From IMG/VR virus record IMGVR_UViG_2711768068_000016, positions 1 to 4,367 of that record: DNA of 4,367 bases; one strand, 5' to 3'. Both the position numbers and the translations under genes were made by a program. The notes under the pieces are model-generated. The model was not told the origin of the DNA and searched no databases. It saw only the letters and a program-made list of their open reading frames with translations. The stretch's first letter is position 1, and every line of letters begins with the position of its first letter. The DNA comes from a virus. Its lineage: Duplodnaviria > Heunggongvirae > Uroviricota > Caudoviricetes. Below, one piece after another: positions 1-4,224 of this stretch.

Positions 1-1761
1 TTCGTTACGCCGCTTTTTGTTATCCCACAGCAGACGCATCTTTCCTTTTTCCCACTTCTCCACAAGCTCTTCCGCGACCAGTTGCTGCGCCTCTGTCTGC
101 GAAAAAATCTCCGGATCATCAGGAAAACGGATGGCATACGACGTGGCTTCATCCGCAGGAGTGGGATCGGCTTTCATACGGGCATAGAGAATTTCTTTTG
201 CGGTGTCCGTCCCCACTTCACACAGATACACGCCCCGCTGATTGCGGGTTTTCGGCATGGTGATCACCGGCTTGCCATAGACAGATGCGCCTTTTACCGG
301 CAGCACCCGGAAAACACCGTGTTTTTTTGACCTCTGATAGACAATTTCACCATCGATCCCCCCGGTGTCCCAGCAGACACGGGAAATGGTCATTTCGGTT
401 CCGTCTGCATGGCAGTATTTTTTGTTGATCGCCGCATCCACACGTAACAGCGTCTCTTCCTCATCGGGACGGCCCATAATGATGATTTTATCCACCAGAA
501 AGGCTTCCTCTCCCGGTGCCCATCCCCAGACATACATCTCAAAACGGTTTCGCTGCGAGTCAATGCCCGCCGTCAGATAAACCACCCGGGCAGGCACCGC
601 CGCCGTGTAACGCACCACCTTATCCATCAGTACCTGGTGATCGAGTTTTTCGCCCACGGCCTCTTCCCAGGTCTCGCCCAGCGTGGTGTTCACAAAGGTT
701 TTCAGGCCGTTGGGATCTTTCAGTGCATCCAGCCAGTCATAGACTATCTGTATCCAGGTGGTGAACGGACTGTACGCCGTCCAGATATGGAACGTGATGG
801 AGCGCGGCGGCGGAATTTCATCCCCCCGGGCGCTGAAAAACATCAGGCCGTCACGGGTCCACATACCCGTGTTTTCACAGATCCAGCGCCCGTTACTCTG
901 GTCAAGCTCAGACTGATGGATCACGCAGCCATGATGTTCACAGAGGTAGAAAACGCTTTCGGGGCTGTCCTTCTCCCATTTAAGGCCAAAAGGCGTGGAT
1001 TCATCGCCAAATTTCAGATACTGCGCCTCCTCACAGTGCGGGCAGGGCACATAGAAACGCATGAAATGCGCCGACTCGTTGGCCGCTTTTTCGATCTGGC
1101 AGGTACCTTTGATTTTAGGCGTCGAGCCGCGAATGGATTTTGGCCATACAGAGCCCTCAATACGCTTATCCCCCAGCAGGGTTGGCGAGCCCTCTTTTTC
1201 GACATCCGGCTCGAACGAGGAAAGCTCGTCATAGCAGACCACGTCCACGGATTTTTCACGGTAGTTTTTGGCGGCTGCACCGCCCAGGCACCAGAAACCG
1301 ACGCCCGATGAAAAGCGTTTCAGCGTGAGAGTATTGTCACGATGTTTACGACCCAGCCATGGGGAAAGGTCTTTCAGGCATGGCACGTTCCGAATCGTCG
1401 CCTCCACGTGAGACTTCATAAAATCTTCAGCGGCAGAATCCGTGGGCTGAAAAAGCAGACTGTTTCGGGATTTATGCTCAATAAAATACCCGGCGACTCC
1501 CAGCAACATCTTTGTATAGCCAACACGGGCAGATTTAATCAGATTAACAGTGCGGATCTGATCATTCCCCATACTGTTCATGATGGCGATCTGGAACGGC
1601 AGCGTTTTCCATTCTCCCTCACCATATGAGGATTCTTTCGGCAGATAATAATACTGGTCAGCCCATTCAACTGCCGTCATCGGTACAACCCTGACCAGAG
1701 GCTGCAGCGCAACCGAAACGGCGGCCACCATATTATTCAGTTGTTGCTCTGATATATTCAT
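1..1761 (-). CDS. A: Phage terminase large subunit (lambda gpA-like), N-terminal ~587 codons; C-terminus lies beyond window position 1
   Basis: The minus-strand frame is open from ATG 1761-1759 to the window edge with no stop; the ORF track lists no closed ORF here, consistent with the stop lying outside the window. By-eye translation starts MNISEQQLNNMVAAVSVALQPLVRVVPMTAVEWADQYYYLPKESSYGEGEWKTLPFQIAIMNSMGNDQIRTVNLIKSARVGYTKMLLGV and ends LVEKWEKGKMRLLWDNKKRRNE at position 1. This is colinear with my recollection of lambda gpA (MNISNSQVNRLRHF...TAVEWADANYYLPKESAYQEGRWETLPFQRAIMNAMG...KSARVGYSKMLLGV...KKRRNEALDCF). Walker-A-like KSARVGYT and Walker-B-like VVCYDE motifs are present. Plus-strand ORFs at 82-1629 are antisense shadows of this gene. 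Confidence 0.93.
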   Translation of the reverse strand, partial: MNISEQQLNNMVAAVSVALQPLVRVVPMTAVEWADQYYYLPKESSYGEGEWKTLPFQIAIMNSMGNDQIRTVNLIKSARVGYTKMLLGVAGYFIEHKSRNSLLFQPTDSAAEDFMKSHVEATIRNVPCLKDLSPWLGRKHRDNTLTLKRFSSGVGFWCLGGAAAKNYREKSVDVVCYDELSSFEPDVEKEGSPTLLGDKRIEGSVWPKSIRGSTPKIKGTCQIEKAANESAHFMRFYVPCPHCEEAQYLKFGDESTPFGLKWEKDSPESVFYLCEHHGCVIHQSELDQSNGRWICENTGMWTRDGLMFFSARGDEIPPPRSITFHIWTAYSPFTTWIQIVYDWLDALKDPNGLKTFVNTTLGETWEEAVGEKLDHQVLMDKVVRYTAAVPARVVYLTAGIDSQRNRFEMYVWGWAPGEEAFLVDKIIIMGRPDEEETLLRVDAAINKKYCHADGTEMTISRVCWDTGGIDGEIVYQRSKKHGVFRVLPVKGASVYGKPVITMPKTRNQRGVYLCEVGTDTAKEILYARMKADPTPADEATSYAIRFPDDPEIFSQTEAQQLVAEELVEKWEKGKMRLLWDNKKRRNE

Positions 1762-2239
1762 CCAGCAAATCCGGTAATTTATCCCCTGCCCGCGCACACT
1801 GATTTGCGCCCTTTGCAATAAGGGTTTTCAGATGGTCAATATGACGTGGCGTTAAATCCGGGAACTGTCGCTGCATGGATAACGGAATGGAATCAAGCGT
1901 ACTGGACAATGCCATCGCCAGTTTGCTGAGGGCGAAAACGCAGAAGTCTGAATCGATGAGCTTACCTTCGGTTACCTGATTTTTAAGTTTTTGAGCTACA
2001 GCCTGTTCTTCTGTCAGTTCAGCTCTGGCCCGAAGCAGCCTTTCCTCCAGTTCTCCCCCGTCATCAGGTGTTCTCTGATTGTGTTGTCGCCGCTCGCGAT
2101 CTATCTCCAGTACAGTTTTAACGTCATATAAAACTTCCCTCCCCCGACGTTCAACAGGAGGAACGCCCCATTTATCAAATGCCTGAACAGAGATACCGAT
2201 GGAGGAGGCCATATCACTTTTATTCAATAAAAAGGCCAT
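1733..2239 (-). CDS. nu1: Phage terminase small subunit (lambda Nu1-like DNA-packaging protein)
   Basis: Track ORF 1733-2344 (minus) translates to ...GREVLYD...AVAQKLKNQ...DFCVFALSKLAMALSSTLDSIPLSMQRQFPDLTPRHIDHLKTLIAKG...DLLDEYIRATTE, matching recalled lambda Nu1 (NEVLYD...AQELKN...AFCTFVLSRIAGEIASILDGLPLSVQRRFPELENRHVDFLKRDIIKA...GLLSEYIEQSG). Start placed at ATG 2239-2237 (MAFLLNKSDMASSIG...) because GGAGAGGAG lies immediately upstream and it aligns with the lambda N-terminus MEVNKKQLADIFG. In-frame ATGs at 2257 and 2344 are alternatives, but the 2344 extension would read through the cosB repeats. Stop TAA at 1735-1733. Confidence 0.88.
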   Translation of the reverse strand: MAFLLNKSDMASSIGISVQAFDKWGVPPVERRGREVLYDVKTVLEIDRERRQHNQRTPDDGGELEERLLRARAELTEEQAVAQKLKNQVTEGKLIDSDFCVFALSKLAMALSSTLDSIPLSMQRQFPDLTPRHIDHLKTLIAKGANQCARAGDKLPDLLDEYIRATTE

Positions 2240-2271
2240 CTCCTCTCCATAAGTCATCGATAAAAAGCGAA

Positions 2272-2280
2272 ACAACAACC
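2272..2280 (+). repeat. cosB R-like element copy 1 (ACAACAACC), nearest the Nu1 start
   Basis: Exact 9-mer; extended match AAACAACAACC at 2270-2280, shared with copy 3. Confidence 0.55.
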
Positions 2281-2349
2281 ATGTGTTTTTGCAAAACCAT
2301 TTGATATCATTGATATTTTTCGCATTGACGACATCAAAACACATCGTAA

Positions 2350-2358
2350 GGTTGTTGT
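2350..2358 (-). repeat. cosB R-like element copy 2 (GGTTGTTGT on plus strand, i.e. ACAACAACC inverted)
   Basis: Exact reverse complement of the 9-mer, lying between the two direct copies. Confidence 0.55.
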
Positions 2359-2408
2359 ATTTATTTTATTTTCACCTTACTTATCAATTAGATATACCAA
2401 ACAATTAA

Positions 2409-2417
2409 ACAACAACC
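2409..2417 (+). repeat. cosB R-like element copy 3 (ACAACAACC), nearest cosN
   Basis: Exact 9-mer; extended match AAACAACAACC at 2407-2417. It lies about 40 nt from cosN, comparable to lambda R3. Confidence 0.55.
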
Positions 2418-2455
2418 ACCCCCTCAAAAAATCTCATAAATAGTGAAAACGCGCG

Positions 2456-2467
2456 AGGTCGCCGCCC
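2456..2467. other. cosN core: 12-nt cohesive-end sequence AGGTCGCCGCCC (reverse complement of the lambda left-end overhang GGGCGGCGACCT)
   Basis: Exact 12-mer seen in sequence. The flank toward Nu1 (rev-comp CGCGCGTTTTCACTATTTATGAGATTTTTT) closely resembles the recalled lambda left end (CGCGGGTTTTCGCTATTTATGAAAATTTT). The flank on the other side (2468-2660, cgtaaccggtcggatcgccggaaaggacccg...) closely resembles the recalled lambda right end (CGTAACCTGTCGGATCACCGGAAAGGACCCG...). The site lies at the expected position immediately upstream of Nu1. Confidence 0.85.
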
Positions 2468-2660
2468 CGTAACCGGTCGGATCGCCGGAAAGGACCCGCA
2501 AAATGATAATAATTATCATCTACATGTCACAACGTGCATCTACGCCATCAAACCACGTCAAATAATCAATTATGACGCAGGTATCGTATTAATTGATCTG
2601 CATCAAATTAACGTAAAAGCAACTTCAGATAATACAAATCAGCAACACTGAATATGGGGC
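2468..2660. other. Lambda right-end-like non-coding DNA adjacent to cosN (expected to contain cosQ)
   Basis: By recollection, about 90 percent nucleotide identity to the lambda right-terminal about 200 bp (…GATAATGATTATCATCTACATATCACAACGTGCG…CAAATAATCAATTATGACGCAGGTATCGTATTAATTGATCTGCATCAACTTAACG…). No ORF present. Confidence 0.7.
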
Positions 2661-2666
2661 AACATT

Positions 2667-2891
2667 ATGTCATCAAAGAACAGAACCCGCAGAACAACAA
2701 CCCGCAACATCCGATTTCCAAACCAGATGATTGAACAAATTAACATCGCTCTTGATCTGAAAGGTTCAGGAAATTTTTCAGCGTGGGTTATTGAAGCCTG
2801 CAGAAGAAGATTAATTAATGAAAAATATTCTCAATTTGTACCCAACAAAGACAAACACGACCAGAGCACCTGTTCAGACAGGTTTACTTAA
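2667..2891 (+). CDS. ylcI: Small DUF3950 / YlcI-YnfO family protein (lambda orf-64 homolog), putative ribbon-helix-helix DNA-binding protein
   Basis: 74-aa ORF MSSKNRTRRTTTRNIRFPNQMIEQINIALDLKGSGNFSAWVIEACRRRL... The first ~50 residues are nearly identical to the recalled lambda right-end ORF / E. coli YlcI (MSTKNRTRRTTTRNIRFPNQMIEQINIALEQKGSGNFSAWVIEACRRRL...). The pattern, a short beta-strand followed by two helices, is RHH-like. Stop TAA at 2889-2891. Confidence 0.8.
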   Translation: MSSKNRTRRTTTRNIRFPNQMIEQINIALDLKGSGNFSAWVIEACRRRLINEKYSQFVPNKDKHDQSTCSDRFT

Positions 2892-2972: not shown

Positions 2973-3287
2973 TTAGCATTTTTTTGACCGCGCGTTTCCG
3001 GACGTATTCTGTTCTCCTGTCCCTTTATATCGTCGGAATACCCGCCGCTCTTCAAATCCCATTCCCAACTCAGAATGTAGTCTGTTGACCGCTTGTTTTA
3101 TTTCGGTCAGGTTCACCGGTGAAACCGGAGTCCGGCGCGCCTTACGCAAACACTCTGCTCGTTTCTGTGCCGCCACTTTTCTTTTCTGGTCATCACTTAG
3201 CTGTACCATCACTTTTGCCCATCGTTCAGCTGCTCTCCGGTACAGTCCTTTTTTCTCCAGACATTCTGCCAGGTGATCATGTAGCAT
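2973..3287 (-). CDS. PerC-family transcriptional regulator (Pch/YfdN-like prophage moron)
   Basis: 104-aa ORF MLHDHLAECLEKKGLYRRAAERWAKVMVQLSDDQKRKVAAQKRAECLRKARR... carrying the LExKGLYRRAAxRW signature I associate with the PerC family (EPEC PerC, O157 Pch proteins, K-12 YfdN). Good RBS: GGAGG 6 nt upstream of ATG 3287. Stop TAA at 2975-2973. Confidence 0.82.
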   Translation of the reverse strand: MLHDHLAECLEKKGLYRRAAERWAKVMVQLSDDQKRKVAAQKRAECLRKARRTPVSPVNLTEIKQAVNRLHSELGMGFEERRVFRRYKGTGEQNTSGNARSKKC

Positions 3288-3750
3288 AAGTAACCTCCGT
3301 TTATCTACAGACTGCCATCCTGAATTTACCGTCCTTAATAAGACAACAATAAAAAACTAATTATATAAAAACAATAAAAATAATATACAAAAAAACTAAA
3401 CAACAAAGAAAAGCAAATCATATCTGGCATTTTAATTGAAAGAGCAATTACCGAACAAAAGACGCTGACTATATACTCAAAACCAAACAACAATTCTGCC
3501 AATCAGGTATCATGGCAACACACGGAATTACCATGTTTTTGCCTTCTCTGCCCATACAATACGGGCATATACTTCATACTCTATTGTAATATTTCTATCC
3601 ATGCGCCCCACTCCATTTACCTGTAAATAATATTCAAAATATTTATCACAGAAATCGTTTTTGGCCATGAACTGAGCACACTATAAAGTCCGGAACTGAC
3701 TCTTTGTTAAATTACCTTAACGTTACCAGTAACACCTTCATAACAAAACA
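3288..3750 (-). promoter_or_regulatory. AT-rich non-coding island: presumed promoter/long leader of the PerC-like gene and region downstream of the Rz stop
   Basis: About 460 bp with no ORF of 60 codons or more in any frame. Extremely A-rich on the plus strand (e.g. 3340-3420 aataaaaaactaattatataaaaacaataaaaataatatacaaaaaaactaaacaacaaagaaaag). GC content is far below the flanking genes. No specific -35/-10 could be assigned with confidence. Confidence 0.4.
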
Positions 3751-4224
3751 TCACGGTATACACTGGGTACGGATATATTCCTGTGCTCCTTCCAGTTGCT
3801 TCTGCATTGCCATCAGCCGTTCTCTGAGGATGAAATAATCCCGTTCAGCGGCTTCTGCCAGTCGGGGACCGGTTGCATTATCCACGCCGGAGGTGATGGG
3901 GGCTTTACGCAAGGAGCCTGGACAGTTGGCGTTGATGCGCAGGCGCTTACGACCAGCGGCAACATCAGCACGCAGAGTTTCATTTTCAGCTCTCGCATCG
4001 GCTAATTCCCTCGAGTATCTGGCATCAAGTGCAGCAACATCACGCTGGCGCTGCTGCATATCAGTAATGGTTGCATTTGCCAGCTCCAGCTCACTGACTT
4101 TTTTATCGCGCTGCTCTTTGTAGGTTATGGCGTTATCGCGGTAATGATTCAGCCCCAGACTAAGCGCACCACAGACCACCAGCAGAATAACGGTAAACGC
4201 GGAAAGCATTCGGTTTATGCTCAC
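3751..4224 (-). CDS. rz: Rz i-spanin (inner-membrane spanin subunit), lambda Rz-like
   Basis: 157-aa ORF MSINRMLSAFTVILLVVCGALSLGLNHYRDNAITYKEQRDK...DVAALDARYSRELADARAENETLRADVAAGRKRL...SGVDNATGPRLAEAAERDYFILRERLMAMQKQLEGAQEYIRTQC, colinear with recalled lambda Rz (…AVNHYRDNAITYKAQRDKN…DVAALDAKYTKELADAKAENDALRDDVAAGRRRL…ASGVDNAASPRLADTAERDYFTLRERLITMQKQLEGTQKYINEQCR). N-terminal TM helix present. GTG start at 4224 overlaps the stop of the upstream ORF (GTGA), as ATGA does in lambda R/Rz. Confidence 0.93.
   Translation of the reverse strand: MSINRMLSAFTVILLVVCGALSLGLNHYRDNAITYKEQRDKKVSELELANATITDMQQRQRDVAALDARYSRELADARAENETLRADVAAGRKRLRINANCPGSLRKAPITSGVDNATGPRLAEAAERDYFILRERLMAMQKQLEGAQEYIRTQCIP
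3813..3998 (-). CDS. rz1: Rz1 o-spanin (outer-membrane lipoprotein spanin subunit), embedded out of frame within Rz
   Basis: 61-aa ORF MRELKMKLCVLMLPLVVSACASTPTVQAPCVKPPSPPAWIMQPVPDWQKPLNGIISSSENG: signal peptide with lipobox (VVSAC), proline-rich mature region. Matches recalled lambda Rz1 (MLKLKMMLCVMMLPLVVVGCTSK…CVKPPPPPAWIMQPPPDWQTPLNGIISPSERG). Entirely nested in the Rz gene in a different frame. Confidence 0.9.
   Translation of the reverse strand: MRELKMKLCVLMLPLVVSACASTPTVQAPCVKPPSPPAWIMQPVPDWQKPLNGIISSSENG

Follow-up and report, generated by a model that had tools for sequence, protein, structure and literature searches.

Positions 2240 to 2660 of the DNA analyzed here, a 4,367-nucleotide stretch of a caudoviricete virus record that we refer to as the window, very probably constitute the cos site of a lambda-like Escherichia prophage belonging to the N15/Monarch class of packaging specificity. 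This assignment is based on the sequences, positions, and conservation of the cos elements and on their association with a particular type of DNA-binding domain in the small terminase subunit (TerS). The specificity is the known N15 type, and a tripartite N15-type cosB was, according to its published descriptors, already described in 2015, so the site is nothing new in kind.

The analysis of open reading frames (ORFs) together with a Pfam scan identified the window as a lambdoid late-region junction with the phage map on the minus strand. It covers only 4.4 kb of the prophage. Phage positions are given as 2468 minus the window coordinate. The order on the minus strand is cosQ, cosN, R3, an IHF-like site, an inverted R2, R1, TerS, and TerL. 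The individual features are as follows.

1..1761, minus strand: TerL gene of the gpA type; first 587 codons, truncated by the window edge
1733..2239, minus strand: TerS gene of the Nu1 family, 168 amino acids (Pfam Phage_Nu1)
2240-2666: noncoding stretch
2272..2280, minus strand: putative R1, GGTTGTTGT; phage positions 188-196, lying 32 bp ahead of the start codon of TerS
2350..2358: putative R2, reading ACAACAACC on the phage strand, opposite to R3 and R1; phage positions 110-118
2382..2394, plus strand: IHF-like site (I1 candidate), TATCAATTAGATA; phage positions 74-86
2405..2420, minus strand: putative R3, with its core GGTTGTTGT at 2409-2417; phage positions of the core, 51-59
2433..2445, minus strand: conserved spacer block between cosN and R3, CACTATTTATGAG; phage positions 23-35
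2456..2467, minus strand: cosN, with the 12-nt cohesive end GGGCGGCGACCT, identical to that of lambda; phage positions 1-12
2468..2660, minus strand: lambda-like right chromosome end, which includes cosQ
2491..2497, minus strand: cosQ, GGGTCCT, the packaging-termination subsite
2667-2891, plus strand: DUF3950 (YlcI/YnfO) gene (Pfam scan)
3287-2973: PerC-family gene (Pfam scan)
4224-3751: Rz gene, with a candidate embedded Rz1

Both terminase genes were recognized by their Pfam profiles. TerS scored 77 bits against Phage_Nu1 (cut-off, 30), and TerL scored 187 bits against GpA_ATPase and 212 bits against GpA_nuclease, both above the respective cut-offs, with zero internal stop codons in its 587 visible codons. 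TerL overlaps the 3' end of TerS by 29 nt, and the same overlap is annotated in L003, a relative from an O111 strain (L numbers designate the loci that were compared). The TerS start codon at 2239 (phage position 229) agrees with the RefSeq annotation of relatives and with the N terminus of N15 gp1, and its ATG is preceded by the ribosome-binding site GGAGAGGAG. For these same reasons, namely, homology to N15 gp1, the RefSeq relatives, and the ribosome-binding site, a 203-amino-acid ORF starting at 2344 was rejected as TerS; this longer frame would overrun R1. Two 41-amino-acid ORFs within cosB were taken as spurious.

The initial annotation of this DNA had reported an exact lambda cohesive end at 2456 to 2467, and this was confirmed: GGGCGGCGACCT has a single exact match in the window, with none expected from shuffled sequences, and the flanks of cosN are identical to those of lambda from position -7 (before cosN) through +16. 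Its estimate that the right-end side is about 90 percent lambda-like also proved accurate, with a measured identity of 91.9% to lambda over 2427 to 2660; the identity to phage 434 over 2468 to 2660 was 96.9%. The cosQ heptamer is located 23 nt from the cohesive end, matches the annotated cosQ of phage 434 in both sequence and distance, and is kept in an alignment of divergent relatives. Across cosN and the adjoining spacer, the segment 2427 to 2470 is approximately 91% identical to lambda, and the segment 2421 to 2467 is approximately 90% identical to phage 21. The spacer block, in the form CGCTATTTAyGAG, is kept as far away as in relatives from Pseudomonas and Halomonas. The view that the window contains a complete lambda-type cos is thus upheld, since cosQ, cosN, cosB, and the adjoining genes for a Nu1-family TerS and a gpA-family TerL are all present. 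Together, 2491-2497, 2456-2467, cosB, and the terminase genes make up what is expected of a lambda-like cos, and nicking at this site is predicted.

The three 9-mer copies on which the cosB assignment had been based, at 2272-2280 (+), 2350-2358 (-), and 2409-2417 (+), were all found exactly. In total, ACAACAACC occurs in 4 exact copies in the window, compared with 0.05 expected, and 0 of 200 shuffles reached four. The fourth copy (2694-2702) was excluded from cos, as it is part of the coding sequence of the DUF3950 gene; we consider it unrelated to cosB because the DUF3950 gene of phage 434 has it too. Phage 434 is a lambda relative with another TerS specificity, and its DUF3950 copy of ACAACAACC overlaps an annotated CII-consensus site. 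The claim that the cosB side is distinct from that of lambda was likewise correct, since isolated phages in the collection match at most approximately 40 bp past cosN. We propose R3 as the critical TerS binding site. The cores start at phage positions 51, 110 (inverted), and 188 in the window, at 53, 114 (inverted), and 155 in lambda (CGTTTCC), and at 53, 112 (inverted), and 153 in phage 21. The repeats had been described as lying at lambda-equivalent spacings; this applies to R3 and R2, given core starts of 51 and 110 versus 53 and 114, but not to R1, which is displaced outward by approximately 35 bp relative to lambda and phage 21, with an R2-to-R1 distance of 78 bp in the window versus 41 bp in lambda. 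Judged by position, the elements would form a tripartite R3-I1-R2-R1 cosB followed by TerS, in which R1 is displaced by approximately 35 bp.

The relatives differ in how they retain these elements. R2 is exact and at the same position in L009, L017, L013, and L014, and one-mismatch or variant copies are present 56 to 59 bp from R3 in L016, L020, L021, and L010. R1 is exact in L003, L008, L009, L013, L014, and L017, and in 7 of the 7 tripartite sequences examined; it occupies variable positions (176 in L009) and is lacking in L016, L020, and L021. Its distance from R2 is thus both odd and variable, and the role of R1 is the least secure among the cosB elements. As for the candidate I1, TATCAATTAGATA is one mismatch away from WATCAANNNNTTR (listed as TATCTAATTGATA in phage coordinates), sits in AT-rich DNA, and shares the coordinates 74-86 with the annotated I1 of phage 21. 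The segment TTGATAAG is retained in the 79%-identical relative L009 and is weaker in L017 and L016. We assigned I1 by its position, because IHF-like matches were not enriched window-wide (6 found versus 5.4 expected). Additional IHF-like ATATCAA repeats are found in the added 35 bp (2294-2320).

An internal cos had been taken to imply a prophage or a circular replicative form, and the gene content agrees with this, since the DNA runs uninterrupted across cos from TerL and TerS on one side to the DUF3950, PerC, and Rz genes on the other. E. coli chromosomes and a contig of E. albertii contain the same arrangement. The gene order is shared with O111 strains (96.9% identity over 4185 bp), and the TerS protein is 100% identical to those of E. 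albertii NBRC 107761 and Escherichia sp. None of the retrieved loci was identical to the window, the best reaching 96.5 to 97.5%. At least 80% of the segment 2200-2470 is present in approximately 246 complete E. coli genomes. Searches of the isolated-phage collection by megablast (2240-2660) and blastn (1700-2470) retrieved no phage with the cosB of the window; the matches were limited to cosN and the right end or to TerS in its C-terminal half.

Lambdoid prophages in pathogenic E. coli are often defective. Signs of decay are apparent among the relatives: R3 is degraded in those from O111 strains (GAGTTGTTGT), TerS/TerL is a pseudogene in L009, and an IS insertion is located nearby in L003. 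The window may accordingly hold a fossil cos in a defective prophage whose own terminase no longer cuts or packages it, so that at most a phage of N15 specificity would do so in trans. Such decay, the large number of lambdoid prophages in these E. coli genomes (as many as 15 matching places in one), and the lack of an isolated phage with this cosB in the collection are compatible with this explanation, which we nevertheless consider unlikely, as (i) TerS has its full length and does not differ from the E. albertii and Escherichia sp. proteins (100% identity), (ii) the 587 visible TerL codons are open and both gpA domains are present, and (iii) every cos subsite is intact in the window, R3 included. 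A loss of function would in any case concern the activity of the site and not its identity, and is compatible with the N15/Monarch classification.

The N15 classification is derived from the DNA-binding domain of TerS and from R3. A distant blastn search matched the 5' part of the TerS gene with gene 1 of phage N15. The window TerS and N15 gp1 are 48% identical overall and share 35 of the first 45 residues, and both contain GISVQAFDKWGV, which spans the predicted recognition helix (ISVQAFDKW in the window TerS; helix boundaries follow published work and the homology to lambda Nu1). The identity to the TerS of phage 21 is only 30%, and sequence matches of the domain to solved lambda-type Nu1 structures were marginal (E = 0.2-0.6). 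The TerS DNA-binding domain of N15 is a dimer according to the literature. The left end of N15 reads ...GACATGAGGTTGTTGTTTAATC..., with GGTTGTTGT at 50-58, and the 14-mer GGTTGTTGTTTAAT is common to N15 and the window at the same distance from cosN within 1 bp. Packaging of N15 requires bp 48-59, and block mutations of bp 48-53 and 54-59 define R3-N15 (PMC4669245). These base pairs are GAGGTTGTTGTT in N15, and phage positions 48-59 of the window are GGTGGTTGTTGT, with the core offset by 1 bp. The identical recognition-helix segment and the R3 match at the position of lambda R3 thus point to membership in the N15 class.

These data modify the suggestion that the phage has its own small-terminase specificity. 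Its cosB and DNA-binding domain are indeed different, but the specificity is not private, corresponding instead to that known for N15. The analogy drawn with the lambda-phage 21 pair is also imperfect: lambda and 21 exclude one another's DNA, but lambda DNA is packaged by N15-type terminase (PMC4669245), so the N15/lambda specificity is asymmetric and not mutually exclusive.

We then surveyed one genome per species using peptide patterns drawn from four aligned TerS proteins; upstream DNA was not used for selection. Conservation of the 9-mer was evident among the 36 independently retrieved loci, 30 of which contained the exact GGTTGTTGT no more than 400 bp upstream of TerS, on the coding strand (approximately 0.05 loci expected). 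The loci were from Escherichia, Trabulsiella, Erwinia, Aeromonas, Pseudomonas, Halomonas, Marinobacter, and others, Enterobacterales included. In most of them the motif is 39 to 43 bp ahead of the start codon, as in N15. In the Pseudomonas phages MD8 and F10, it is at 51 and 52, respectively, in records that, by alignment with N15, apparently begin at the left cos end or no more than 1 nt away from it, and an exact inverted copy is present at 251 and 252, respectively, inside the TerS gene, like N15 rR2. A tblastn search of the phages with the TerS DNA-binding domain retrieved only N15-like and Pseudomonas/Alteromonas phages, and the matches checked (N15, MStein-2023a, MD8, and F10) have a simple cosB layout. 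The exact tripartite spacing of the window (-178, -119 inverted, and -41 from the ATG) was found in E. albertii, Escherichia sp., and L017, a contig binned as Aeromonadaceae whose cohesive end differs in sequence and whose spacers have diverged, with unchanged 9-mers. In L009, an E. coli relative that is 79% identical over cosB, the three 9-mers are preserved, with R1 displaced by 12 bp. A bipartite form, with R3 and an inverted R2 56 to 59 bp away and without R1, was found at three loci, two of them from Pluralibacter and Pseudocitrobacter. GGTTGTTGT paired with ISVQAFDKW occurs in simple, bipartite, and tripartite grades of cosB, and appears to represent a very old, nearly invariant packaging code that extends from Escherichia to Pseudomonas, Halomonas, and Marinobacter. 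In the literature consulted, such a series is described only for N15, five prophages, and four Monarch-like prophages.

A rival explanation is that the window functions with an N15-like simple cosB: TerS would use R3 only, R2 and R1 would be vestigial copies or could be dispensed with, and a hairpin of R3 and R2 bent by IHF would not form. A single R3 approximately 40 bp ahead of TerS suffices in N15 and in most relatives (approximately 25 of 36 loci), the remote rR2 of N15 is nonessential, and R1 of lambda is only accessory (PMC4669245); in the window itself, the IHF match is not significant, and R1 is variable in position among the relatives and missing from L016, L020, and L021. Set against this is the inverted R2, which is kept 56 to 59 bp from R3 in L009, L017, L020, L021, and L010 despite diverged spacers or a different cosN, a retention that argues for selection on R2, and R1, which is exact in all 7 tripartite sequences examined. 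We therefore regard a functionally simple cosB as quite improbable.

The 9-mer and the TerS domain not only co-occur but also co-vary. Loci whose TerS has the helix VSATAFDKW or VGVTAFDKW (E. coli satellite elements, Superficieibacter, and Kosakonia) contain GGTGGTGGT at the R3 position and ACACC(A/C)ACC at R2, replacing GGTTGTTGT and ACAACAACC. In PhiR12_1, the C-terminal, TerL-binding half of TerS is shared with the window at approximately 85% nucleotide identity, and it is accompanied by another DNA-binding domain and by three CATGTCCGG repeats in cosB, which illustrates a modular exchange of cosB jointly with the DNA-binding domain. That the ACAACAACC copies are chance low-complexity repeats, or operators for another protein such as a late-gene or terminase regulator, as their simple trinucleotide-like composition and the fourth copy in an unrelated coding region (overlapping a CII-consensus site in 434) might suggest, is scarcely credible in view of the shuffling result (0 of 200 with four copies), the presence of the motif in 30 of 36 independent loci, its tracking of the cosN distance (50 to 52 bp) in N15, MD8, F10, and the window, the genetic requirement for its position in N15 packaging, and its co-variation with the TerS helix.

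Comparison with known cos systems places the window closest to the Monarch group of prophages, the layout of which was reportedly described by Feiss et al. in 2015 (Virology 482:260). In its published descriptors, this group has N15-type R sites in the lambda-like arrangement R3-I1-R2-R1 without a remote rR2, a TerS helix identical to that of N15, an inverted R2, an IHF site between R3 and R2, a 12-nt lambda-like cohesive end, a conserved cosQ, and a strong R3-N15 match (PLoS One 10:e0141934, PMC4669245). All of these published features are seen in the window, including the three N15-type R sites, the inversion of R2, and the IHF-like site between R3 and R2, a layout that L009, L013, L014, and L017 also keep; this likeness is to a verbal description and not to an aligned sequence. 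As in Monarch, no rR2-like copy with at most one mismatch was found inside the window TerS gene (1733-2239), where a copy of this type would be detected because N15 rR2 differs from the core by one base. Compared by description only, there is no demonstrable difference between the window and the Monarch group, and we infer identity with this group from the published descriptors.

The other systems share some of these features with the window and differ in others. (i) N15 has a similar R3 core position (50 versus 51 in the window), GGTTGTTGTTTAAT, the TerS helix, and the conserved spacer block. However, its cosB consists of R3 alone with TerS starting at bp 89, a remote inverted rR2 is located within gene 1, an IHF site is lacking, and its cohesive end differs from that of lambda at 2 of 12 positions, whereas in the window cosB is R3-I1-R2-R1, TerS begins at bp 229, rR2 is lacking, and the cohesive end is that of lambda. 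(ii) Lambda has an identical cosN, a right end that is approximately 92% identical, including cosQ, and approximately 91% identity over the first 40 bp after cosN, as well as the R3-I1-R2(inverted)-R1 logic, a gpA-type TerL, and a Nu1-family TerS. Its R core is CGTTTCC versus GGTTGTTGT in the window, and the likeness of the TerS DNA-binding domains is barely detectable. (iii) Phage 21 resembles the window in cosN and in its tripartite layout, with an annotated R3 at 50-65, I1 at 74-86, and an inverted R2 at 107-122, but has the R core C(A/G)TGTCGG and R1 at 150-166. (iv) The Rpp-dependent cos of Gram-negative PICIs has a lambda-like cosQ and cosN and a non-lambda element at approximately bp 48-65 (PMC9026076). 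Rpp reads this element, which is one R3-like site, and lambda-type TerS and TerL genes do not follow, whereas in the window the repeats are tripartite and a full terminase operon follows cos.

The favored assignment as an N15/Monarch-class cos leads to the following model. During lytic growth, winged helix-turn-helix dimers of TerS would bind the GGTTGTTGT cores, with R3 centered 55 bp from the left end. IHF may bend the DNA at the I1-like site (74-86), which would allow the inverted R2 (110-118) to fold onto R3, and R1 (188-196) would serve as an accessory site. The resulting complex would anchor the gpA-type TerL, which is predicted to introduce two cosN nicks 12 bp apart, generating lambda-identical cohesive ends. 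Packaging would then run leftward in window coordinates, through TerS and then TerL, and cosQ (2491-2497) together with cosN would direct the terminating cut at the next cos. In this model, TerS binding to R2 and R1, bending by IHF, and the activity of the window copy are inferred. The distance of approximately 78 bp between R1 and R2, together with the ATATCAA repeats, could reflect an initiation complex unlike that of lambda, for example, with a second bend or a larger TerS wrap. We consider this reading, together with that of a very old GGTTGTTGT/ISVQAFDKW packaging code, rather unlikely.

The segment 2240-2660 would thereby gain a definite and ordinary function as the packaging site of a lambdoid prophage, and its assignment as cos fixes the orientation of the phage map and the chromosome ends. 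Prophages with such a cos are common in pathogenic E. coli (O111 and O103) and are also present in E. albertii. The class shares the cohesive ends of lambda, and its terminase, as tested for N15, can also package lambda-type DNA. This is relevant to the question of which prophages and satellites residing in the same host can be mobilized together.

The pairing of the repeat GGTTGTTGT with the ISVQAFDKW helix of the terminase small subunit (TerS) was found to extend well beyond enterobacteria, reaching Pseudomonas, Halomonas, Aeromonas and Marinobacter (comparison loci L018 to L047; phages MD8 and F10). In the Pseudomonas phages MD8 (L051:1-300) and F10 (L052:1-300), an exact inverted copy of GGTTGTTGT is present 200 bp downstream, within the TerS gene, where N15 has its proposed rR2, the remote inverted R copy inside that gene. 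A different combination was observed in PhiR12_1 (L001:2017-2215), an induced ECOR phage with a chimeric TerS, in which the C-terminal half is similar to that of the window and the N-terminal DNA-binding domain is different; its cosB contains three CATGTCCGG repeats. The CATGTCCGG repeats may represent a further packaging specificity, related to that of phage 21.

Variation was also detected among relatives of the window. (i) A contig binned as an Aeromonadaceae metagenome-assembled genome (L017) has the tripartite cosB and the spacing of the window but a different putative cohesive end (GGGTGCGTATAC), indicating that cosB and cosN assort independently. (ii) Among full-length relatives, those closest to the window, such as the prophage of E. 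coli O111 strain RM9131 (L003), carry at phage positions 49 to 58 of cos an R3 that lacks one G (GAGTTGTTGT, a 1-bp deletion), whereas neither R2 nor R1 is damaged. In L003, an IS1203 is located 3.5 kb away, and the deletion together with the nearby insertion sequence may reflect a decay of packaging ability. (iii) The spacer between R2 and R1 contains in the window an additional ~35 bp that displace R1 outward with respect to lambda. Within this segment lie a short direct repeat, ATATCAATGATATCAAATGG (2294-2320), and an IHF-like match (2294-2306), and positions 2294 to 2320 could form a second bending site. In the E. coli relative L009, the counterpart of this stretch is mostly deleted or diverged, leaving only a partial ATCA remnant.

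Three further features of the window, located outside its cosB, are the following:

2694-2702, fourth exact copy of ACAACAACC, in the DUF3950 (YlcI/YnfO) gene, coding for part of RTTTR
2973-3287, minus strand, PerC-family (Pch-like) gene for a transcriptional activator, with cos on one side and the lysis genes on the other
3813-3998, minus strand, ORF of 61 aa within Rz, read in a different frame, with a lipoprotein-type signal sequence (LVVSAC)

The fourth copy of ACAACAACC is unrelated to cosB; phage 434 has the same sequence, and an overlapping CII-consensus site is annotated in its record. A segment of ~190 bp (3330-3520) ahead of the PerC-family gene is very AT-rich. The gene looks like a virulence-regulator cargo gene, and prophages of the window's type occur in E. 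albertii and E. coli O111/O103, which are attaching-and-effacing pathogen groups. The 61-aa ORF is the predicted Rz1, the expected spanin partner of Rz.

An integrated element of ~11 kb adjoining tRNA-Pro was observed in E. coli SYNB1934, a Nissle derivative (L053:11500-22600), and in O157 strain 7784 (see also L010, L011 and L012). Along with an integrase, a P4-family primase and SSB, it codes for a major capsid protein, a head decoration protein and a TerS of 180 aa. The TerS gene lies between two complete cos sites, each made up of cosQ and a lambda cosN, that are inverted relative to each other and separated by ~880 bp. Upstream of TerS, the cos repeats are N15-like variants (GGTGGTGGT/ACACCAACC); those of the second cos differ between strains, being 21-like (CATGTCGG) in one and of a different type (CAGATCC) in another. 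The presence of two cos sites with different repeat sets around TerS suggests that the element is a satellite, potentially packaged by terminases of two specificities.
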